Source: Cyanidioschyzon merolae
Lineage: Eukaryota
Length of the DNA stretch: 64,000 bases
Assembly (NCBI GenBank): GCA_000091205.1
Contig: AP006502.2
Direction: 5' to 3' (one strand)
Shown here: in pieces, positions 7,505-64,000 of the stretch
How positions within the stretch are numbered: the stretch's first letter is position 1
Layout of the letters: each line of letters starts with the position of its first letter
Made by a program: the position numbers and the translations under genes
Notes under the pieces: model-generated
Seen by the model: the letters and a program-made list of their open reading frames with translations, nothing else
The model's database searches: none
What the model was told of the DNA's origin: nothing

Positions 7505-8602
7505 ATGACATCACCAGCGCTGCCGCTGCAGCTCCCGCGCTCCGAGCACATCGCTTTTTTGGGCCAGTACGTAAACCGGGACGTCAGGGCTTTGCCATCT
7601 ACCTTTGAGCTTTGGGTCACGGAGCATAAGAAACTCTCTGCCGCCTACTGGACGGTCGTTGCACTAGCGCTGCTGGACGCCCTGGATCTGGTGCCACGCG
7701 AGCGTTTGCGAGACTGGGTGCTGGAGTGTCGAGACCCGTGTGGCGGGTTTGGCGGCGACGTTGGACAGGACCCGCATCTGCTCTATACGTTATCAGCGGT
7801 CCAGATCCTTTTCTTACTGGGAGAAGAGGCGCGCCTGGACCGGTCATCCATCATAGCATATGTGGCAAGCCTTCAGCAACCTGACGGATCTTTCGCAGGC
7901 GATACCTGGGGCGAGATCGACACCCGCTTCTGCTTCTGTGCGGCGCTTACGCTCGCCATACTTGGTGTTCCATTGCAACAACGCGAGCATTCTCGGAATT
8001 CTCCAGAAAAGACGAACGAAATCGAACGTCCCATTCGCACCGATGCCCTAGTAGACTACATCATGCGATGCGAAAACGATGACGGAGGCTTTGGTGTTAT
8101 CCCCGGCGCAGAATCCCATGCTGGTCAGGTTTTCTGCTGTGTCGGCACGCTGGCGTTGTGTGGAGCTCTCTATCGGCTTCGAGACGGCGGCAATAGGCTG
8201 GCTCGTTGGCTCGCGTATCGCCAACTTCGAAACGGAGGTTTCAATGGTCGTCCCGATAAGTTACCGGACGTTTGCTACAGCTGGTGGGTACTGGCCTCGC
8301 TTAAAATCATCGCAAAGGACCATTGGATCTCTGCTGACGCTCTTGAGCGTTTCATCTTCTCCTGTCATGCGCAGAGAGAGAGTCAGAACACATACGCTGG
8401 CGGCATTGCAGACCGACCAGGTGACGAGCCGGATGTCTTCCATACCTTTTTTGGCCTGGCTGGTCTGTCGCTGCTCGAGAGGCAGCAGCTGATCGCCATT
8501 GATCCTGTCTACGCTCTTCCGTGTGCGCTTGTGAAACGCATTCATGCCGCCAACCCCAAAGCGGAACTCGTGGACACAACCGAAGGGGTGTCACAAGTTT
8601 GA
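7505..8602 (+). CDS. RABGGTB: Rab geranylgeranyltransferase (GGTase-II) beta subunit
   Basis: Prenyltransferase alpha-alpha toroid repeats colinear with RABGGTB/Bet2: GGFGG..HDPHLLYTLSAVQIL, DGSFAGDTWGEIDTRFCFCA, DGGFGVIPGAESHAGQVFCC, NGRPDKLPDVCYSWWVLASLKII, DRPGDEPDVFHTFFGLAGLSLL. Track ORF starts at GTG 7499; first ATG is 7505. Confidence 0.85.
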   Translation: MTSPALPLQLPRSEHIAFLGQYVNRDVRALPSTFELWVTEHKKLSAAYWTVVALALLDALDLVPRERLRDWVLECRDPCGGFGGDVGQDPHLLYTLSAVQILFLLGEEARLDRSSIIAYVASLQQPDGSFAGDTWGEIDTRFCFCAALTLAILGVPLQQREHSRNSPEKTNEIERPIRTDALVDYIMRCENDDGGFGVIPGAESHAGQVFCCVGTLALCGALYRLRDGGNRLARWLAYRQLRNGGFNGRPDKLPDVCYSWWVLASLKIIAKDHWISADALERFIFSCHAQRESQNTYAGGIADRPGDEPDVFHTFFGLAGLSLLERQQLIAIDPVYALPCALVKRIHAANPKAELVDTTEGVSQV

Positions 8603-9567
8603 ATGCGATATCCATTTACGGATGAGAGACGTATCCTTCGCAGTTCCGATACACAATGCGCAAATCCTGGTGTGTGCTGGTGCTCGTGACACAGTGACCG
8701 GGAAAACAAGGACGCTTTTTTCACCAATTGGACAAGATTTTGCGGTGCGCCGTTAACTAACAACGTGCTTGTTGCATGTATGCACGGCTCGAGTTTCAGA
8801 AGCAACGGGATCACGTCTCTTTTCCTGCTAGCGCTCCCTGTCGTTGACTGTGCTCATCTTCTACGACAGCGCACAAGCGTTGCAGCGCTCAAAAAATTCA
8901 TGGAAATACGCACGCGCAAACCAGAGCAATGCGCCCCCATCCTTTCTGTGGATATTAATGTATCTATTTTCACGTGCTCATCGAAGTCGTAACGTGTAGG
9001 AATTCGCCGATCCGACCAATAAATCAAATGCGCTTGCTGGTTGCTACCCCAGAGCGAGTCCCTGCCAGCGCAGCGCAGACACGCTTCATTACCGTTCGGT
9101 TCCGCGTTCGCGTACACCATGACATGGGCCATCATTCTGGTACGAGAGCGCGCAGCATCCACGAGGCCTGCCCCAGCCTCCCGGTCACTGGCACCGTGAT
9201 TCAATCCCGCTAAGCCAGTCGCTTACGGATTCGCATACCAGCCTTGGGGCGGAGACGGTGCTCGAATGAGGAGAGCGACCTGCAACGCGCCCAGCGAGCG
9301 CACTACAGGCAAGCTCTTCGCACCCATACGTTGCCGCGTTCGCACGAGTGTGCCTCGGTGATCCGTACAAGGCAACAAAAGGCAGATGCGCTGGTGCGTC
9401 CTGATCATGGACCCGGGCTCGTGATCGCATTAGCAGCGCTCGCTCGATAGCGTCGATGCAACGCTCCTCAATACACTGATCGGCATCAAGCAGGCGGGGA
9501 TCGCCCATTCGGTGCATCGATCCTACACCAGGAAGAAAATAGCGACAATGCGGGTGCGCTACTCGCC

Positions 9568-10524
9568 TCAGTCTGTCAGTGAGCGCAGTCCTCGGGTTTC
9601 CTGGATGAAATCGGCGATAGCCTGATAGTAACGCTCACCACCTCGATACCAAGTGTCATTATGTGTTCCATCAGGAATGTATACCATTCGAGCAAGCATG
9701 CAGGAACCCGCTCGAGCAGCGTTGTACAGAGCATCCATATGCGATGGAGGTACGAGTTCATCTTGCCGACCGCTGATAAACAGAATCGGAGACCGGATCT
9801 TGCCGACCAGGGCCAGGGAATTCCACGGGTTACGATTCAGTCGCTTGAGCCAGCGCAGGCCTCGTGGAAAAACCACGTCAATCATGTCGCCGATACAAGT
9901 AAATGTATTCTCCACGATGACGCCGCGGAGTTTGGAACCGTACTTGCGACCGAGCCAGAGCGCTACGGCACCGCCAATCGAACGCCCGAATACATAGAGG
10001 AGGTCGCTTTCGATCAGACGGGCTGACGGTACCCGACCTGCCGCTGTGGATGTTCCGCTATCATCCGCTGCGGCATGTTTTCCGGCGTTCAAACAGAACT
10101 CCATCGCTGCTGAAGCGTCGAGCTTGAAACCCTGCTCCGATGGCGTGCCAGACGACTCTCCATAGCCGCGATAGCTGACCATCAGAACATTGCACTGACA
10201 TGTTGCGATTAGGTTGCGCACGTCTTGCAGGCGGTGTGACAGGTTGCCTGCGTTGCCGTGGAAGTAGATGATCGTAACCCGCGGCCTTTGACCTGTTTCA
10301 CTTCGTACTGGAAACACAAGCCACGCATGAATTCGTGTACCGTCGACAGCTCGCAGCGCAACGTCCTCATACGCGAGACCCTCGAACTGGTCAGGGTACG
10401 CATCGTAGTGTCGTGAAGGTATCTGCGGCAGATAGAGAAGCTTCTCCTGCTTGAGGTACAGCGCGCCGCCCAGAAGCCCAACAGCACCGAGCGCTACACC
10501 TAGTATGGGCACGATCGCTGCCAT
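9568..10524 (-). CDS. Alpha/beta-hydrolase, BEM46/ABHD13 family, with N-terminal membrane anchor
   Basis: IIYFHGNAGNLSHRL, MVSYRGYGESSG, nucleophile elbow GRSIGGAVAL, VENTFTCIGDMIDV, ILFISGRQDELVPPSHMDALY, PDGTHNDTW. Order and spacing as in ABHD13/Bem46. N-terminal hydrophobic segment AIVPILGVALGAVGLLGGALYL. ATG at 10524 (track start is GTG 10539). Confidence 0.75.
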   Translation of the reverse strand: MAAIVPILGVALGAVGLLGGALYLKQEKLLYLPQIPSRHYDAYPDQFEGLAYEDVALRAVDGTRIHAWLVFPVRSETGQRPRVTIIYFHGNAGNLSHRLQDVRNLIATCQCNVLMVSYRGYGESSGTPSEQGFKLDASAAMEFCLNAGKHAAADDSGTSTAAGRVPSARLIESDLLYVFGRSIGGAVALWLGRKYGSKLRGVIVENTFTCIGDMIDVVFPRGLRWLKRLNRNPWNSLALVGKIRSPILFISGRQDELVPPSHMDALYNAARAGSCMLARMVYIPDGTHNDTWYRGGERYYQAIADFIQETRGLRSLTD

Positions 10525-50660: not shown

Positions 50661-52150
50661 CTCTTGACGTGTACAAAAGAATAAGTTCGAAAGCTCCCTC
50701 CAATTCTAGGTCCGGTTCCGTAGCTTGAGATCACATGCTTCATCTGAGCGATGTCCTCGGCAACTGTTTCGTCCTCTTCACGCGAGAACGTATGCTGTTC
50801 CATTCGATAAAGGATTAGGGGAATAAGATGTTGTTCATGATGAACCGAGCCCCGGACGGCAAATTCGAGCTGGAGAACAAGTCAAGCAATGTCGAGCCTG
50901 CTACGCTCCTTCACTTCAAGGCGATGACGCATGCTCGACCGGATGCGATCGCCTCCATGACTCAATCCGAGTCCAAGAACGTTTTTGCTACGCAGCCATA
51001 CGAGACGGGAGCTCCTCGGTGCATCTCCCGAGAGCGGGGTTTCGTGCAGATCTCGAACGCTGTTATGTCGAGGACTCTACCAACAGCACGCTTTGTCTTC
51101 CGAACGGAGTGAATCGGTTATTGGGCATGACATATTCAGTGAACTCACAGCAGCAACACGTGAACATGTCGGCAGGAGACAACCGTAGGGCCCTAGCCGC
51201 ATCAATCAAGCGGTCCGAATGGCTGCGCCTTCGAGTTGCCGTGAAAAGTAAATGTCGAATGCCAGACCAACGATGATTGAGGCATGCTATGCATAAGAAA
51301 GAAAGAAGCGTAGATCCTTGTAAGCATCAACTGAATAATAATATCGATTATTTTACGAACTCTTGTTCAAGTGCATTGCGAATCAAGTATACTCCGGTGT
51401 CGTAACGAACATCAGCAGCTCAGAGTCGAAAGAGCCACTCCGCAAAAACGACCGAGGGCTCTAGGACCGCATATGAATCCGTAAGCCCTTATGACAACAT
51501 TTCGAATGTCGAGGCTGTATATCGAGAAAAGCTCAGGGACAAACTGGAAAGCAGGAGCATCGCGAGTCGTGCAATGCTCGATTTATAATTGACATGGGTG
51601 CAACATCTGAGGAAGCAACTAATGCTGCTTTTGAAACGCTCAGCGTCTCACACGCTTCACAAGAAACTTCCTCGGAAATCATGATCATTTCGCACGCTCC
51701 ACGGCCTGACTATCCATGCTGCAACGTCGAACGCAGGGCGGCGGGTATCCCGCGGACCCATTGCGCTGACAATACGAAGACCCGCGAACTGCGTCGCAAT
51801 GTCCATTTCGTCGCTTCGGTCCTTAGCAAGTGCTCGAGCACGCAGACAAGCAGTCGCCCGCTCGTTTCCTCTGCACTTGGTTACGGTGGGAGCGATTTAT
51901 TGCGTACAAAAAATTCAGCTTCATTTCTTCGCTGAACGAGGCAGAGAACGTTTGGAAGCACTGAAACGGCTGGAGGAGTGCACATCGCCGTGCTTTTCGC
52001 GGAGTTAGACCACTCGCACGTTGCACGCAATTCGAACTGAAGAAACTCCATGCGCTGCTAACAAGTCTTGCACGCGTCTGATAAATCAGCTAGTCCACCC
52101 TATCTTGCCTAGGTATAGGGATACCGCTCGCATTTCTGGTACATTCGATC

Positions 52151-53749
52151 ATGCTTCTGGCGGAAAGCCTCGGCGGCGTCGCTTTTGTCACCGTTCACAC
52201 GGTGCTGTGCGTCGCTGTACTGTACTTACCGTGGAACCGCGGCGACCGAGAAAGCTTCCGTGTCACTTGTCTAGGGGCTTTGAGCACTTGCGCTGTTATC
52301 GCTCTGAGCCTGGTGAATCTTCAGTTGTTCTTCACTGGCTTGACCTGGCGGGAGCTGTCGCGGACGTATCACTGGCTGAGGCCGTGGCACAGCTGGCAAG
52401 TCTATCTACTGGACTCTGGCGGTTTTTTGGTGCTCCTTTTTCTGCACGAGTACAGAAAAAGACAGCAGACTCCAGTTAAGAGTTCGTCATCGAGCACGTG
52501 TGCATCGACGTCGCAGTCCGCTTGCCCGAATGCGGAGAACGGCATCTATCGAAACGAGAGGCGAAATACCTGGTGCATGTTCCGAAGCCTGCTGATCGCA
52601 CCGATAACAGAGGAGCTCCTCTTCCGTTGTGTATTCGATGCAGCAATGAGATCAGCTCAAGTCCCTGAACTTGCCAGCATGATTTTCAACGGAGTCATGT
52701 TTGCCGTAGCGCACGCGCATCACTATTTCCGGCACCAGAGCAGGTCACTTCTCGGAAAGCAGCTTCTTGTAACGTTTTGCTTTGGTTGCGTCCAAGTCGT
52801 TTGCCTGAGACGGACGGATTACTCCCTGTGGGCCTGCATCGCAACGCACGCTTTGGCGAACGCGCTCGATCTGCAGAAAGTTTTCAGTGATAGGGGAGCG
52901 TCACATTTTCTCTACGGCGACGTAGGCCATCAGTTAGGAGCCCTGCTGCAAGCTGCAGCACCGCTCGTATTCATCTTGCGCTATGCGCTTGACATGGCCA
53001 TGCAAGCGAGTCCGTTCCGGTCCTCGATCCTCCAGGTGCATGCGGACCCGGGGCTGCTCGAGGAACGGCGTGAAATCATGCGTCCAACGACGCCGTTTTC
53101 GCTCTTCTTGATAGAATATCATCAGCGTGATCCGATCTTCGGGCGCTTCATGGCTCTCTGCTCCATGCTGCCTCAACTTTTATTCGCCGCAGAGGTCACA
53201 GCTGTCTACTGTTGGCGAAGTCCGCGCGCATTGCTCCTAGCTGTTGGCCAGATTGTGAACGAGACGCTGAGCTACGCACTCAAGCGATCGTGTCGGATAC
53301 CTCGCCCGCCAATCGCTCGACTGGAAGCAGATGCGTTCGGTTGGCCCTCTTCACACGCTCAGTTCATGTCCTACTTGTACGTTTTCTACGTACTCTATGT
53401 GTCTAGGCCACAGCGCAAGGCATCATCGAGCCACAACGGTGAAATGATGCACCAGACGCTTCCGAAGCGGAGGAAGACGACCGATTCAATTTCGGAAACC
53501 GTGGCAGTGATGTTTTTGCTAGGTCTGTCATCCGTTCTGGTGGCTGCCTCAAGAGTATACCTGGCATATCATTATCCCAGTCAGGTTTGGTATGGAATCA
53601 TCATGGGCACTATTTTCGCGATAACCTGGTTCCTTGCGAGTGAAAACGTTTTCTTATCCTACGTTCGATCATTGCGGATTCTCGTATGGCTCGGGTTCGG
53701 CGAAGATGACTCTGACCTGTTTCGCAGTATACTCAGAGATGTGCATTAG
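52151..53749 (+). CDS. Single ORF encoding an RCE1-type CAAX prenyl protease domain fused to a DOLPP1-like (PAP2) dolichyl-diphosphate phosphatase domain
   Basis: N-terminal half: RCE1 motifs APITEELLFRCV (EExxxR), FAVAHAHHYF (FxxxH), ATHALANALD (HxxxN/D). C-terminal half: PAP2/DOLPP1 motifs KRSCRIPRPP (KxxxxxxRP), GWPSSHAQFMSY (PSGH), SRVYLAYHYPSQVWYG (SRxxxxxHxxxD), plus DOLPP1-like N-region FLIEYHQRDPIFG. No stop codon between the two halves; ATG at 52151. Confidence 0.75.
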   Translation: MLLAESLGGVAFVTVHTVLCVAVLYLPWNRGDRESFRVTCLGALSTCAVIALSLVNLQLFFTGLTWRELSRTYHWLRPWHSWQVYLLDSGGFLVLLFLHEYRKRQQTPVKSSSSSTCASTSQSACPNAENGIYRNERRNTWCMFRSLLIAPITEELLFRCVFDAAMRSAQVPELASMIFNGVMFAVAHAHHYFRHQSRSLLGKQLLVTFCFGCVQVVCLRRTDYSLWACIATHALANALDLQKVFSDRGASHFLYGDVGHQLGALLQAAAPLVFILRYALDMAMQASPFRSSILQVHADPGLLEERREIMRPTTPFSLFLIEYHQRDPIFGRFMALCSMLPQLLFAAEVTAVYCWRSPRALLLAVGQIVNETLSYALKRSCRIPRPPIARLEADAFGWPSSHAQFMSYLYVFYVLYVSRPQRKASSSHNGEMMHQTLPKRRKTTDSISETVAVMFLLGLSSVLVAASRVYLAYHYPSQVWYGIIMGTIFAITWFLASENVFLSYVRSLRILVWLGFGEDDSDLFRSILRDVH

Positions 53750-54479: not shown

Positions 54480-55442
54480 TTACAGGGCTCTGTCATCTCG
54501 CATGGTGCTTGCTAGGACAGCGTCCGCACCTCGTTCACGCAGACCTCTCAGCAATGAGGCATTGGGGGCGTGCTCACGTGGCAGCTCCACGATGACTCGA
54601 AGCCCTAGTCTCCTAGCTTCCGGTGCGAACCGCTCGAGCAACGCCTCTGAGTCGCTAAGCATAGGCACAAGACTGTCGAGGTCTCTCTTCGCGAGAAGCA
54701 GAATGCTAATGCGGCCGTCATCGCTGTGCTGCCTCTTTGCTGTCAAAAGCGCATCCAACTCGGCGGCATCGTGCACTTCGATGATGGGCGCCATCCCCAG
54801 CGCAACGCTTGCCTTGGCAAAATACAGCGTATCCTTCAACCCAAGCACCTTCATGATAAGCACACAAGCATCAGCTTGATAAAAGCGCGCGTCGTACAGT
54901 TGCCATGGATACACGAAAATGTCCTTGCAGATAACCGGACACCTGACGACCTCATGAACCCTCCGAATATCCTCGTAGCTGCCGTAGAAGCGGCGCGACT
55001 CGGCATTCACCACGACTGCTCTGGCATCGTTCTTCTCTTCAGCCACATTTGCCAGAATAGGTGCAGACTCTGTGTCTTCCGGTGAGCAGCGCTGGTACTG
55101 GAAAAAGAGCACGCTCTCCGGCCCTGCGGAGTCCCAGAAAACCGAGTTGAGGTCGCGCACCGGAGCGACATCACTTTTCTCTAAGCGGCTTTTCATAAGG
55201 AACAGAGGCATGCGCTGCCGACGCACTTCAATTTCACGCTCTTTGGCCCAAACGAGCTCCTCGAGCAGGTTCCTCGGTTTATCCTCGGGGTTCTCAACGC
55301 CCCAGACGACGTTCTCTGCGAACACCTGACGGCCATTCCGGATGGAGCGTCGCCGAATCTGGTCAACTGCCTCGTTTGACCCTTCGCTACGCTCGCTGTG
55401 GTTGCATCTTAGGCTTACGATCCAACTCAGTCTCAAAGGCAT
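54480..55442 (-). CDS. trpC: Indole-3-glycerol-phosphate synthase (TrpC), with N-terminal targeting-like extension
   Basis: VICKDIFVYPWQLYDARFYQADACVLIMKVLG and LGMAPIIEVHDAAELDALL align with IGPS (ILCKDFIIDPYQIY.AR..GADAVLLI; LGME.LVEVHDEEE). N-region LLEELVWAKEREIEV matches the IGPS N-helix. ATG at 55442. Confidence 0.8.
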   Translation of the reverse strand: MPLRLSWIVSLRCNHSERSEGSNEAVDQIRRRSIRNGRQVFAENVVWGVENPEDKPRNLLEELVWAKEREIEVRRQRMPLFLMKSRLEKSDVAPVRDLNSVFWDSAGPESVLFFQYQRCSPEDTESAPILANVAEEKNDARAVVVNAESRRFYGSYEDIRRVHEVVRCPVICKDIFVYPWQLYDARFYQADACVLIMKVLGLKDTLYFAKASVALGMAPIIEVHDAAELDALLTAKRQHSDDGRISILLLAKRDLDSLVPMLSDSEALLERFAPEARRLGLRVIVELPREHAPNASLLRGLRERGADAVLASTMRDDRAL

Positions 55443-56248
55443 GTTCTCGATTATAGCTTATCGAGGAAGAGACGGAAGCAAGAAGGCACGCCTGTCACGT
55501 TGTGCCGCTGTGGGTGCCTCGCAAAGCACCATTTATTCCTGGACATATTAGGCCAAGACAGTCCGATGCTGTCACCTGGCAAGTGTGCGTTTGGCTTCGC
55601 AGCGCCGGAGGCTCGGCACTGCAATGCAGTGCTTGCCACGGGCACGACAATCCAGAAAATCGTCTGATTCCGGAGCGCATGTGGGTGCATGAAGGAGCAT
55701 AGTTGATGCCCCGGAGGAAGGATGAGGCGTGCCTAGGTAACCGGTTGAATACCTTTCGCATAGGATACGGTGTTGCTGCAGAGTTCGCTCGATCATGTCT
55801 TTAGAACACACTCTAGAGCCCTGATGATGCATGCGGGTTGTATCGCTTTTTTCGTCGGATCCTATCCCGGATGCAGCCTGATGGTACACACGTGACGGGC
55901 TTCGAGCCGCGAGGGTGCATACCTGATGCATCAAGTGTGGGAATTCGCGGCATGAACAAGCATATCCGAAGCTGTTCATCATGCATGTCGCGTCAGCTGG
56001 GAACACGGTATAGATGCCTGCACGAGAAGCGGGCGCGTTTTCGGGCAATATTCGAACGTGTTCTCGGGGCGGAGCCTGCACTTCCATGAGGAATGCTGTG
56101 GCAGCCACGCAGTGAATGATTCACGAAACGATTCGCCGTCATATGCCTAGTCCCCAGCGGGTATACTGCGTTTAATTAACGTGGGGCGCTTGTCGCTTTC
56201 TGTGTCCTAAAAGCACAAAAAGCCTTGCTGATCAGGGTTATACTCGGT

Positions 56249-57864
56249 GCAGAGAATTCTGGAGTGCCTGTATCAGCACGCTGTTTTCGATTTATTTCGG
56301 GTTTCTCGCATACAGTCAACAAAGGAATGCATCCTGTACATTACAGAGAAGACACGGAAAGACTGGTGCTGTCAATGCTAGGATGCGTTCCATGGCCCTA
56401 CGACTACAAGTTCGCCGTTCTGCGCTCAGCGCGTGCATGAACCACACTCGTCGTTGCCCCTGAGCTGAACGTCCTGCACCCAAACCAGATCCCAGAGAAC
56501 GCCCACTAAACGACCGTCTCTCTGTCGATTCACGCCACGACATGCAGTCTCGAACAGGCCGCTATCACAGATGCCAAAGAATGCGACGTTTCCGTTCCGC
56601 AGATGCGAACGGCCACGAACACACGCAGACGGACAACCGAAAACGGCATGCTTATGAGCGGAACTGTCGCACGTCCAGCTGCACACACTTGATTCCGCAC
56701 GGAGACGCGTGTGAGCGCTTCCCATGGGCGACAAGCGCTCATCATCTCGGTCGCAGAGACCTCATTCCCGAGAATACCTGCATCACAATATGGGTACGCC
56801 AAGCAGGGCGTACCGCTGTTCGTAACGAAGGGACGCACGGGAAGACCGGCAGCACCAGCCCGAGTGGCAGTGCGGCCGTGTGGAGGCCTGCACTCGCGAA
56901 ACGCACAGCATCGTGCACTACGTCATCCCGTGTCTGAGCTGTCTCGTCGCGCGTTCATCTCCATACACTGGGTTGTCCTGATCGCGGACGACGCTGCTTT
57001 CCATCACTCAAACCCGGTCAAGGAGCGCGCACCTGAGGCAGGCGTTGAGCGGCTCCCTCCACTGGCTCGTGCTTCTGGGTTCATTCAAGTCGAGGCGTCT
57101 GCGCTGTTGTCAAGTGCCGTTTTCGCAGGCACGCGTCCGTGCACGAGCCGCTCGCAACCGTGAAACGCGTCTTGCACAATTCGTCTCTTGGTCTGTGTCA
57201 GCGATGAACTGGAGTGTTGCCCCTGTGCTCGTGGGCATGCGGCAGCGCGCCGGCGTGCTTCGGTCCTTGAGCGTGCCCGCGACGAACAGGATGACGAAAA
57301 GGTAACTAGATATACATATGTACGTGGGGCAGGGGATGTTTAGTGGCACTGTTTGCACACCGCACCGAGTCCAGGAGAGAAACCGGATGGAAAGCATCGG
57401 AAACACTGTTTGGCACACAGCGACGTGAGGGAGATTCAGAAGGATACCACCAGGCAAAGAAGAGGGAGATTCTCCGGGAAAGAGCGCAACAATGGGCATG
57501 AATGAAAAGCTGTCGGGGCGGAAAGATCAAACGTACGCCGTCCTTGAGGCGTCTCCGCCGAAACACATCAATGGGGAGAATGCTCCAGGACGTGAAATGC
57601 AGGATGCTATTAGGGATCGCACAGCGTCTTACTCGACACGTCGTGTCCAGCACCTCGCGCCTCGGTGCATACCGCCGAAGCATTGTTTTACGAGTTCTGG
57701 AAGAAGGTCTGGCAGCTGTCCACATTCCTCTGGATTATTTCGATCCAACTATCGTGCAGCAAGAGAACGGATGCTCGCGACAGACGATTCTCGATGGCCC
57801 AGTCATATGGTTCGAGATTCGCACAAACGCCTCGAATCGTACCTCGACATGCGCCAGCACAACG
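56249..57864. repeat. Direct repeat copy 1 (at least 1616 bp, identical to 62385-64000; copy 2 truncated by window end)
   Basis: Identical six-frame ORF sets offset by exactly 6136 bp (e.g. 56316..56543 = 62452..62679; 57306..57725 = 63442..63861). Sequence is identical after two mismatches at the left edge. Confidence 0.9.
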
Positions 57865-59280
57865 TCTTCGCTCGAAAAATGTTCTGCAGTGCATGTGCCA
57901 AATGGTATCAAATGCCTAACTGCAGACCGAAAAGCCTATGTTGGTGAACCTCGAGAGCTTCATGGAGCGCACCGTGTGGGCGTTGTATCCTCATCTTCGT
58001 GGGCCCGCAAAGAAGAGCTGATGGAGGGGATTCTCTGCTCCAGCTTGTACATGAGTGCCACTAGGTGTCACGGGGGCGATCCCTGGCATGGGCACGTGGT
58101 GTCGCGCTGGGGCCGCCACCCGTATCGCAGTGCGGAGGCAAGAGGCGTGTATTCGGGCACACGTTCAATGCGTCAGAAGAAGGAGATGATTGAGAGGTCG
58201 CGTCGCTTGCCCGTAGCCTATGGCGCTGCTCGTTCCGGGCAGCGTAAAACCTGCACTCGTACAGCCTTCGCGCCGAATGTGCAACGACTGCAGGAATCGA
58301 TGCTGCACAACTCCCATAGATGCATCCCCGACGACATACGCGCCTCACGAGCACGAGTGCACCCTGCAACAGGCCCAGAAGCAGTATGTGGAATGGAGTC
58401 GCATGCACGAGATGGCCTACGACCAGCTCAGCAAACATCAGATGCCGAGGCAATCGCCAGTGAGACGCTCGGTATGGTAGGATTCCACAGGCCGCAGTAC
58501 GCCCGAGCGAACAGTATCTGCGCGGAGACTTCAGCCCATCGATGACCTGCAGGTACCGTCTTGCACTTGCAGAGCGTCCGGCTTCCTTGCGTCGAGCGAG
58601 TTCTCGATGTCTACGCTCAGCACGCATCAGTCTGGGCGCTTCGCGAAAACGCTGCAGACCTGCGACGGAAGATAGAAACCCCATTGCCCAGGAGAGCGGG
58701 CATTGGATTCAAGCTTGAAGCGAGCCACAGGTATGGTATGGTACCGCGATCCAGCAAGATTACAGCGCTCAATATCTGCACCGAAAAACCTTTCCCAGGG
58801 CACCTGCTAGACGATATTTGGGTTTTGTTCCACGATATCACCCATCCTGGTCAAGTACCGCTCCAACTGAACATAAACGGTACCTGATTCCACGCTTACG
58901 AACTTTGCACACACATCCCGTGAATTCTGGTTGAACGCAAGCGTCCAGCACGATGCCATACCACAAAACACAGAGCCGTGGAAGCCGATGCACCAGAGGT
59001 CGCCTCGTCACGCTCGACGAGCGCCTCTGTTGGCGCTACGCCAGCGTTCCCAGTCGGCAGTCTAAAATCGACGCTGGCGACGTGCAGGCGGGCGAGTGTA
59101 CCCAGGAGCGGCGTGTGTCCAGCACCGGCGCCTGCGCGTTGCCAGCGTCGATTTTAGACTGCCGCCCCGGTCAACGAAGCGCTTGTCGTGGCCCGCGACG
59201 CATACCGAATCCAGGCGGTGCTCGGTAGCTTGTCGAGACGTTCAGCAACGTCTCTCTGGACCAAAAGTCGTGTGTGTTCC

Positions 59281-62298: not shown

Positions 62299-62384
62299 AA
62301 GGCTCTGGAAGAGAATGCAATCCGGGAACACCAGCCGCTACAGCAGCGACAACACTCTGCCTCGGAACCTAGACAAGCCCTGGA

Positions 62385-64000
62385 GCAGAGAATTCTTGAG
62401 TACCTGTATCAGCACGCTGTTTTCGATTTATTTCGGGTTTCTCGCATACAGTCAACAAAGGAATGCATCCTGTACATTACAGAGAAGACACGGAAAGACT
62501 GGTGCTGTCAATGCTAGGATGCGTTCCATGGCCCTACGACTACAAGTTCGCCGTTCTGCGCTCAGCGCGTGCATGAACCACACTCGTCGTTGCCCCTGAG
62601 CTGAACGTCCTGCACCCAAACCAGATCCCAGAGAACGCCCACTAAACGACCGTCTCTCTGTCGATTCACGCCACGACATGCAGTCTCGAACAGGCCGCTA
62701 TCACAGATGCCAAAGAATGCGACGTTTCCGTTCCGCAGATGCGAACGGCCACGAACACACGCAGACGGACAACCGAAAACGGCATGCTTATGAGCGGAAC
62801 TGTCGCACGTCCAGCTGCACACACTTGATTCCGCACGGAGACGCGTGTGAGCGCTTCCCATGGGCGACAAGCGCTCATCATCTCGGTCGCAGAGACCTCA
62901 TTCCCGAGAATACCTGCATCACAATATGGGTACGCCAAGCAGGGCGTACCGCTGTTCGTAACGAAGGGACGCACGGGAAGACCGGCAGCACCAGCCCGAG
63001 TGGCAGTGCGGCCGTGTGGAGGCCTGCACTCGCGAAACGCACAGCATCGTGCACTACGTCATCCCGTGTCTGAGCTGTCTCGTCGCGCGTTCATCTCCAT
63101 ACACTGGGTTGTCCTGATCGCGGACGACGCTGCTTTCCATCACTCAAACCCGGTCAAGGAGCGCGCACCTGAGGCAGGCGTTGAGCGGCTCCCTCCACTG
63201 GCTCGTGCTTCTGGGTTCATTCAAGTCGAGGCGTCTGCGCTGTTGTCAAGTGCCGTTTTCGCAGGCACGCGTCCGTGCACGAGCCGCTCGCAACCGTGAA
63301 ACGCGTCTTGCACAATTCGTCTCTTGGTCTGTGTCAGCGATGAACTGGAGTGTTGCCCCTGTGCTCGTGGGCATGCGGCAGCGCGCCGGCGTGCTTCGGT
63401 CCTTGAGCGTGCCCGCGACGAACAGGATGACGAAAAGGTAACTAGATATACATATGTACGTGGGGCAGGGGATGTTTAGTGGCACTGTTTGCACACCGCA
63501 CCGAGTCCAGGAGAGAAACCGGATGGAAAGCATCGGAAACACTGTTTGGCACACAGCGACGTGAGGGAGATTCAGAAGGATACCACCAGGCAAAGAAGAG
63601 GGAGATTCTCCGGGAAAGAGCGCAACAATGGGCATGAATGAAAAGCTGTCGGGGCGGAAAGATCAAACGTACGCCGTCCTTGAGGCGTCTCCGCCGAAAC
63701 ACATCAATGGGGAGAATGCTCCAGGACGTGAAATGCAGGATGCTATTAGGGATCGCACAGCGTCTTACTCGACACGTCGTGTCCAGCACCTCGCGCCTCG
63801 GTGCATACCGCCGAAGCATTGTTTTACGAGTTCTGGAAGAAGGTCTGGCAGCTGTCCACATTCCTCTGGATTATTTCGATCCAACTATCGTGCAGCAAGA
63901 GAACGGATGCTCGCGACAGACGATTCTCGATGGCCCAGTCATATGGTTCGAGATTCGCACAAACGCCTCGAATCGTACCTCGACATGCGCCAGCACAACG
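62385..64000. repeat. Direct repeat copy 2, beginning 87 bp after the SERCA stop codon
   Basis: See copy 1; the window ends inside the repeat. Confidence 0.9.

Follow-up and report, generated by a model that had tools for sequence, protein, structure and literature searches.

A probable ancient fusion of RCE1-type CAAX protease and dolichyldiphosphatase modules in Cyanidioschyzon merolae and its relatives

A described protein close in design to the one considered here is Pdf1 of Schizosaccharomyces pombe, in which palmitoyl-protein thioesterase 1 (PPT1) is joined to a dolichyl pyrophosphate phosphatase (Cho & Hofmann 2004, as cited in PMC7338907). We analyzed a 64,000-nucleotide stretch of contig AP006502.2 from Cyanidioschyzon merolae, a red alga of hot springs (assembly GCA_000091205.1), called the window below, in which an intronless gene of 532 codons plus stop at 52151–53749 (+) very probably joins a different enzyme, an RCE1-type CAAX prenyl protease, to a dolichyldiphosphatase (DOLPP1). 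Pdf1 is reportedly made as one chain that is cut afterwards into separate enzymes. Each module of the C. merolae protein has described relatives that stand alone: yeast Rce1p, plant FACE2 (CAAX prenyl protease 2) and archaeal MmRce1 (PDB 4CAD) for the first, and DOLPP1, Cwh8p and Cax4p for the second. MmRce1 has eight transmembrane (TM) helices and a cavity that opens to the cytosol, with both termini on the lumenal/external side (PMC5874806), and the active site of Cwh8p/DOLPP1 faces the lumen of the endoplasmic reticulum (ER), according to Fernandez 2001 and Rush 2002 as these are cited in PMC4281381 and PMC12505894.

As in Pdf1, DOLPP1 is the C-terminal partner of an enzyme acting on lipid-modified proteins, and the joint is at its predicted lumenal N-terminus. 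The protein of C. merolae and its relatives in the family Cyanidiaceae differs from Pdf1 in that the partner is a polytopic intramembrane protease rather than a soluble lumenal thioesterase, and in that its linker holds no conserved dibasic or other site for cleavage. Compared with the stand-alone RCE1 proteins, its N-terminal half is just 19–29% identical in sequence, its eighth helix is unusually conserved (FILRYALD..SPF) and its C-terminus runs, after 25 residues, into a second enzyme. The DOLPP1 half shares with DOLPP1, Cwh8p and Cax4p the motifs C1–C3, an SFSLTHV-Y--DP-like N-terminal motif and five helices collinear with those of the 220–250-residue stand-alone enzymes. Unlike a stand-alone DOLPP1 (~235 residues), it has its N-terminus tethered to RCE1, and it has a longer, more basic predicted cytosolic loop between its third and fourth helices (TMc and TMd).

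Two enzyme modules in one reading frame

The open reading frame (ORF) listing of the window contains exactly one ORF at 52151–53749 (+), which encodes 532 residues from an ATG with zero internal stops, as the original prediction had it. Its protein sequence is that of C. merolae 10D BAM83219.1/XP_005539255.1/UniProt M1VCI1, a member of the 90%-identity cluster from a 1.62-Mb chromosome record, and is predicted to form a polytopic ER membrane protein of ~59 kDa. The product is called ‘similar to palmitoyl-protein thioesterase precursor’ in GenBank, ‘intramembrane prenyl-peptidase Rce1’ (automatically) in UniRef and ‘dolichyldiphosphatase’ at JGI. Each of these names describes at most half of the fused protein, and the GenBank name is wrong, because a Palm_thioest domain is absent from the protein in Pfam, where the partner of DOLPP1 is Rce1-like. 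The misnomer probably arose from a best match to a PPT1–DOLPP1 fusion of the Pdf1 type through the DOLPP1 half. The protein has been public for years with each half tagged by automated pipelines; what is new here is the combination of RCE1 and DOLPP1 domains, and our literature search returned no paper naming these protein accessions, the JGI sample numbers or an RCE1–DOLPP1 fusion.

Both halves match their Pfam families at scores far above chance. In the N-terminal half, PF02517 (Rce1-like) matches residues 140–239 with 57.2 bits (gathering score 22.4, E = 2.2e-15; 61.6 bits in the Cyanidium ortholog described below). The match lies within an RCE1-type CAAX prenyl endopeptidase module, residues 1–286 (52151–53008, +), which is modeled as eight long helices (approximately residues 2–24, 36–60, 84–106, 140–168, 173–193, 199–221, 226–245 and 256–286) plus short peripheral ones. 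The three RCE1 catalytic motifs that had been read in the first half of the ORF are indeed present on the same strand: E154-E155-L-L-F-R159 (EExxxR, 52610–52627), F184-A-V-A-H188 (FxxxH, 52700–52714) and H233-A-L-A-N237 (HxxxN, 52847–52861). In alignments of fused and stand-alone proteins, E154, E155, R159, F184, H188, H233 and N237 are invariant in four of four fused orthologs, and four stand-alone RCE1 homologs keep every one of them save R159, which is lost in P0168. The stand-alone homologs are collinear with the N-terminal half over all eight helices, and two of them, P0166 and P0168, share with it an N-terminal RD-P-VI--R motif. The module had been thought to end near residue 260; its end must be moved to about residue 286, as the final helix of the stand-alone RCE1 proteins falls on the eighth helix here (residues 256–286; 52916–53008, +). 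This helix carries the segment FILRYALDxAxxxSPF, invariant in three of the four taxa, which we had at first taken for a conserved ‘linker’, a view rejected on this alignment.

Searches with a profile of the N-terminal half identified it less sharply. The only named matches are plant ‘CAAX prenyl protease 2’ proteins, and these are weak (E = 1.8e-8 and 1.6e-5, at 40–48% query coverage). An NCBIfam scan brought up prokaryotic subfamily models of the CPBP superfamily only below threshold, none near its cut-off. Against PDB sequences the profile did not find MmRce1 and gave a single spurious dUTPase match (E = 0.9), and Kyte–Doolittle hydropathy by itself did not resolve the polar catalytic helices. 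By fold comparison, the predicted model of this half fits an eight-TM fold like that of MmRce1.

The C-terminal half is closely matched to its stand-alone counterparts. PF01569 (PAP2) covers residues 361–497 with 52.9 bits (gathering score 27.2, E = 4e-14) in a dolichyldiphosphatase (DOLPP1/CWH8/CAX4) module, residues 312–532 (53084–53746, +), that comprises an N-terminal beta-hairpin motif and five TM helices (TMa–TMe; 328–355, 358–381, 399–418, 446–470 and 476–507). The prediction that this part holds all three PAP2 motifs is upheld in an alignment of 27 sequences: C1, K378-x6-R385-P386 (53282–53308, +); C2, P399-S-S-H402 (53345–53356, +); and C3, S467-R468-x5-H474-xxx-Q478 (53549–53584, +). 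K378, R385, P386, P399, S400, S401, H402, R468, H474 and Q478 are invariant in all 27, S467 is present in at least 90%, and the motif residues do not vary across the four fused orthologs. The DOLPP1-like character claimed for the beginning of this half likewise stands: the DOLPP1-specific motif PTTPFSLFLIEYHQRDP (residues 312–328) aligns with the extreme N-terminus of stand-alone dolichyldiphosphatases, whose own version reads PL-SFSLTHV-Y---DP and whose start methionines fall at residues 306–308, which puts the start of the module at about residue 306–312. In a profile search with the C-terminal half, the top matches are fungal proteins of 219–251 residues named Dolichyldiphosphatase, DOLPP1 or ‘related to CAX4’, matched over their full length with E-values down to 6e-34.

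For structure prediction, two separate alignments were used (fused proteins plus RCE1 homologs, and fused proteins plus DOLPP1 homologs), each giving one AlphaFold2 (AF2) model; a combined alignment of all three groups was discarded, RCE1 homologs having been misplaced in it onto the C-terminal half. Model 1, with the RCE1 homologs, has a mean predicted local distance difference test score (pLDDT) of 57.7, with 70–80 in the catalytic helices. Model 2, with the DOLPP1 homologs, has a mean of 66.4, with 84–95 in the DOLPP1 half and 81–89 at residues 271–300, and Foldseek matches it to PAP2 membrane phosphatases at probability 1.00. We infer that both halves are probably active.

Recurrence and distribution of the fusion

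The fused ORF recurs in independent assemblies. JGI, ENA and Logan assemblies supply 15 contigs with an identical 532-residue ORF, and three further JGI contigs add to these. The contigs are 99.4–99.8% identical to the window in nucleotide sequence, with zero indels across the gene, and the missed stop or frameshift that had been considered as an artefactual origin of the fusion is absent from at least 13 C. merolae contigs that were assembled independently. A close variant (P0005; L2R, G42R) is recorded on 45 contigs. Across eight environmental contigs, the ORF carries five synonymous and one non-synonymous (G42R) single-nucleotide polymorphisms (SNPs), or 3.8 per kb, and 957 nt of flanking non-coding DNA in the same contigs carry 14, or 14.6 per kb. 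This pattern, in small numbers, fits purifying selection over the whole ORF.

The same fusion, sought in related species, is present in three further taxa. Orthologs with both Pfam domains in an uninterrupted ORF occur in Cyanidiococcus yangmingshanensis (KAK4529452.1, 518 residues, 48% identity), in an uncultured relative known from metagenomic data (P0003, 518 residues, 46% identity) and in Cyanidium caldarium (KAK4534501.1, 572 residues, 30% identity). These three genes are intronless, because three nucleotides per residue plus a stop codon account for the full length of each. A convergent gene for indole-3-glycerol-phosphate synthase (IGPS; PF00218), at 54480–55442 (−) in the window, is the same neighbor in all four taxa, and the fused loci are therefore orthologous; IGPS is context only, and we claim no functional link between it and the fused gene. 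An older assembly of Cyanidiococcus yangmingshanensis yields a 315-residue model (P0004; F1559_005161) that begins within RCE1 helix 7, continues across the junction into DOLPP1 and loses the frame after ~150 residues. It looks like the result of an assembly frameshift, and it illustrates how annotation can hide the fusion. Taking these lines together, we hold with good confidence that the fusion is genuine and ancient and that it consists of a complete RCE1 (residues 1–286, eight TM helices), a 25-residue linker and a complete DOLPP1 (~220 residues, five TM helices). A single origin, in an ancestor common to Cyanidium, Cyanidiococcus and Cyanidioschyzon, appears likely.

Its distribution was examined with a profile of three fused proteins searched against 1.84 billion representative proteins. 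Among 1691 matches, only three have E < 1e-30, and all are from Cyanidiaceae (P0003, the Cyanidium protein P0014 and the truncated P0004). These score at least 255 bits. The next match, at 110 bits, is a stand-alone DOLPP1; the remaining matches in the top 150 cover only the DOLPP1 part, the best stand-alone ones spanning profile positions 310–505. No other RCE1–DOLPP1 fusion is present among these representatives, because the added RCE1 score would make it outrank stand-alone DOLPP1 and none does. The absence of any fused protein between 255 and 110 bits supports the earlier supposition that RCE1 and DOLPP1 are separate genes in other eukaryotes, and the fusion, as far as this search reaches, is so far known only in the small family Cyanidiaceae.

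Other predicted fusions of DOLPP1-type PAP2 domains exist as database models, each of which could be a real fusion or a merged model (P0024, P0053, P0078, P0087, P0105 and P0140). The partner is Arv1 in P0024, palmitoyl-protein thioesterase (Palm_thioest) in P0053 and an Exo_endo_phos/PGAP2IP-like domain in P0140. In three DOLPP1-containing proteins of 685–1117 residues, the partner is an invertebrate AID/APOBEC-like deaminase.

Junction and membrane orientation

Conservation along the fused protein peaks in the two catalytic cores and the DOLPP1 N-terminal motif and is lowest in two cytosolic loops and the linker. The linker (residues 287–311; 53009–53083, +), which is predicted to be lumenal, is only 11–21% identical between taxa. 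Its length is fixed at 25 residues with one 1-residue indel in Cyanidium, and in the alignment of the four taxa it contains no conserved methionine and no conserved dibasic site. The stretch 52930–53060, singled out beforehand for re-inspection, corresponds to RCE1 TM8 and the first part of the linker and is open and alignable in all four species. The conserved and confidently modeled TM8, together with the fixed linker length, may hint at a physical interface with DOLPP1 that is now perhaps under selection.

In the models, one PAP2 motif is found where TMb ends, one where TMc begins and one in the turn between TMd and TMe, which would put the start of TMa, and with it the DOLPP1 N-terminus, on the active-site, lumenal side. 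By analogy, such a lumenal N-terminus agrees with fusions that place a lumenal thioesterase there (P0053; Pdf1). Lysine plus arginine counts are 19–22 in the predicted cytosolic loops and 9–13 in the lumenal ones in all four species. Helix counting, PAP2 motif positions and this bias jointly suggest a 13-TM protein with its N-terminus and junction in the lumen and its C-terminus in the cytosol. In this orientation, the RCE1 cavity would be accessible from the cytosol and the DOLPP1 active site from the lumen. The fusion thus favors, for a eukaryotic RCE1, an MmRce1-type topology with eight TM helices and a lumenal C-terminus over the model for yeast Rce1p.

Several points weigh against parts of the picture drawn so far. 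First, the experimental topology of yeast Rce1p, from cysteine accessibility, has a cytosolic C-terminus, a contradiction with MmRce1 that a review calls unresolved (PMC5874806); if the yeast topology is valid here, DOLPP1 would be inverted. An older four-TM prediction for mouse DOLPP1 also has a cytosolic N-terminus (PMC4281381). Second, the 13-TM arrangement depends on helix counting in AF2 models that are both of low-to-moderate confidence, and the RCE1 half of the modeling is poorly supported, with seven sequences. Third, few matches, with the partial query coverage given above, tie the N-terminal half to RCE1 rather than to another CPBP protease. Fourth, transcript support for the fused gene is circumstantial: four short JGI contigs have near-identical ends, at about 51815–51822 and 55449–55506, as if derived from two convergent transcripts. 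Finally, a metagenome scan for distant fused loci, for example in Galdieria, yielded nothing beyond contigs resembling C. merolae and weak, unrelated PAP2 matches. If transcription starts at the shared left end of the four contigs, a 5′ leader of ~330 nt would precede the fused ORF; the interval 51815–52150 contains ORFs of 67–152 codons on both strands, two of which run into the fused gene.

Alternative explanations and possible roles

A lumenal linker invites the idea of a polyprotein, a single chain that is cut in the linker to yield separate RCE1 and DOLPP1 enzymes. The Palm_thioest–DOLPP1 fusion P0053 means that DOLPP1 accepts lumenal N-terminal partners, the linker is poorly conserved with low pLDDT at residues 301–320 in Model 2, and C. 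merolae itself has an RR pair at residues 306–307. Across the four taxa, however, the linker conserves neither this dibasic pair nor any other site, and the constancy of linker length beside a strongly conserved, confidently modeled TM8 suggests that structure constrains the two modules as a joined pair. On these grounds we consider cleavage unlikely.

A second alternative concerns the identity of the N-terminal half, which could be another glutamic intramembrane protease of the CPBP family that acts on a non-CAAX substrate, possibly one tied to dolichol or glycosylation. PF02517 spans the whole CPBP superfamily, and the named RCE1 matches are weak and partial. Nevertheless, those sole named matches are eukaryotic ‘CAAX prenyl protease 2’ proteins, the stand-alone homologs are collinear over all eight helices, with the RD-P-VI--R motif shared by P0166 and P0168, prokaryotic CPBP subfamily models all fall well short of their cut-offs and the automatic UniProt name is also that of an Rce1 prenyl-peptidase. 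A protease of another kind is thus distinctly unlikely.

The two enzymes might also be separated at the RNA level, by an internal promoter or start for DOLPP1 or by regulated removal of a junction segment. The latter possibility comes from two contigs with frame-breaking deletions in the same 68-nt stretch (52845–52912, +), which are a source of ‘split’ gene calls: L015 lacks 35 nt (52869–52903) and L016 lacks 67 nt (about 52845–52912); in contig coordinates the sites are 1048–1054 in L015 and 1025 in L016. They represent two independent samples, and the contigs look transcript-derived; for an internal start, C. merolae offers Met282, Met284 and Met310. Against regulated removal, the deletions are nested but share neither end, lack GT/AG boundaries and would destroy RCE1 TM8, and each is seen once, in a single 3.6-kb contig. 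L015 and L016 are JGI contigs with neighboring sample numbers, and L016 is also chimeric at its start. Predicted stems enclose both deletions, as template switching would lead one to expect, but the stability of the fold does not reach significance (z = −1.2). The deletions are probably artefacts, for which template switching is a plausible cause. Against an internal start, the stretch from TM8 to the first DOLPP1 helix holds no conserved methionine, and Cyanidiococcus and Cyanidium have none there at all. Separation at the RNA level is, in our judgment, very improbable.

The last alternative, that an error of sequencing or assembly, or an over-long gene model, merged two neighboring genes, draws on three split members of the 90%-identity cluster (P0008/P0009, P0010/P0006 and P0013) and on the truncated, frameshifted P0004, but is scarcely credible given the intact contigs and the many records of P0005, an ORF that stays open in four taxa at 30–48% identity with one 1-residue indel at the junction, a P0004 that itself reads through the junction, and split members that are accounted for by the single-contig deletions of L015 and L016 and, in P0013, by divergence into AGATCGGAAGAGCGTCGTGTAGG at the end of a 1.3-kb contig, which we take to be Illumina adapter.

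Elsewhere in the window, a direct repeat occupies 56246–57864 and 62382–64000 with a spacing of 6136 nt (the repeat search itself reported 300 nt at 99% identity). Positions 8246–9864 of environmental contig L001 match each copy at ~99% over 1619 nt, and the end of the window cuts off the second copy. Contig breaks fall in or beside the repeat, at 56283 for L005 and L007 and at 56375 and 56361 for the source contigs of L003 and L004. A segmental or tandem duplication may account for the repeat, and it would take in the start of a 347-residue ORF at 57502–58545.

If the fused protein is a single 13-TM chain, as we favor, its RCE1 cavity would face the cytosol, where prenylated CAAX proteins are, and its DOLPP1 site would face the lumen, where dolichyl diphosphate is released after N-glycan transfer. 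The fusion would have been tolerated because the C-terminus of an eight-TM RCE1 and the N-terminus of DOLPP1 naturally share the lumenal side. Substrate channeling is unlikely because the two reactions use opposite membrane faces and unrelated substrates, and the benefit would most likely be fixed 1:1 co-expression and co-localization in a very compact genome. Three readings go beyond co-expression, and even taken jointly they seem improbable. First, RCE1 TM8 and the linker may dock onto the DOLPP1 bundle and form one unit that couples protein prenylation and CAAX processing with dolichol recycling, two branches that draw on farnesyl diphosphate. Second, the DOLPP1 half may also act on farnesyl diphosphate, as Candida Cwh8 has been reported to do (PMC12505894), and in this way tie control of the prenyl-donor pool to prenyl-protein maturation. 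Third, irrespective of function, the fusion may serve as a natural topology reporter which places the C-terminus of a eukaryotic RCE1 in the lumen.

Natural fusions hint at cooperating proteins, and here they would be two ER enzymes from two branches that consume farnesyl diphosphate. The fusion corrects a wrong GenBank product name and constrains the topology of eukaryotic RCE1, which is disputed between an archaeal crystal structure and yeast accessibility data and could be tested in the genetically tractable C. merolae. It is also a ready-made bifunctional construct with which mutual influence of RCE1 and DOLPP1 could be studied, and a lead for cross-talk between prenylation and dolichol recycling whose interest is raised by the Candida Cwh8 report. 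Should the link prove merely neutral, it would still mark Cyanidium, Cyanidiococcus and Cyanidioschyzon cleanly as a shared derived character.

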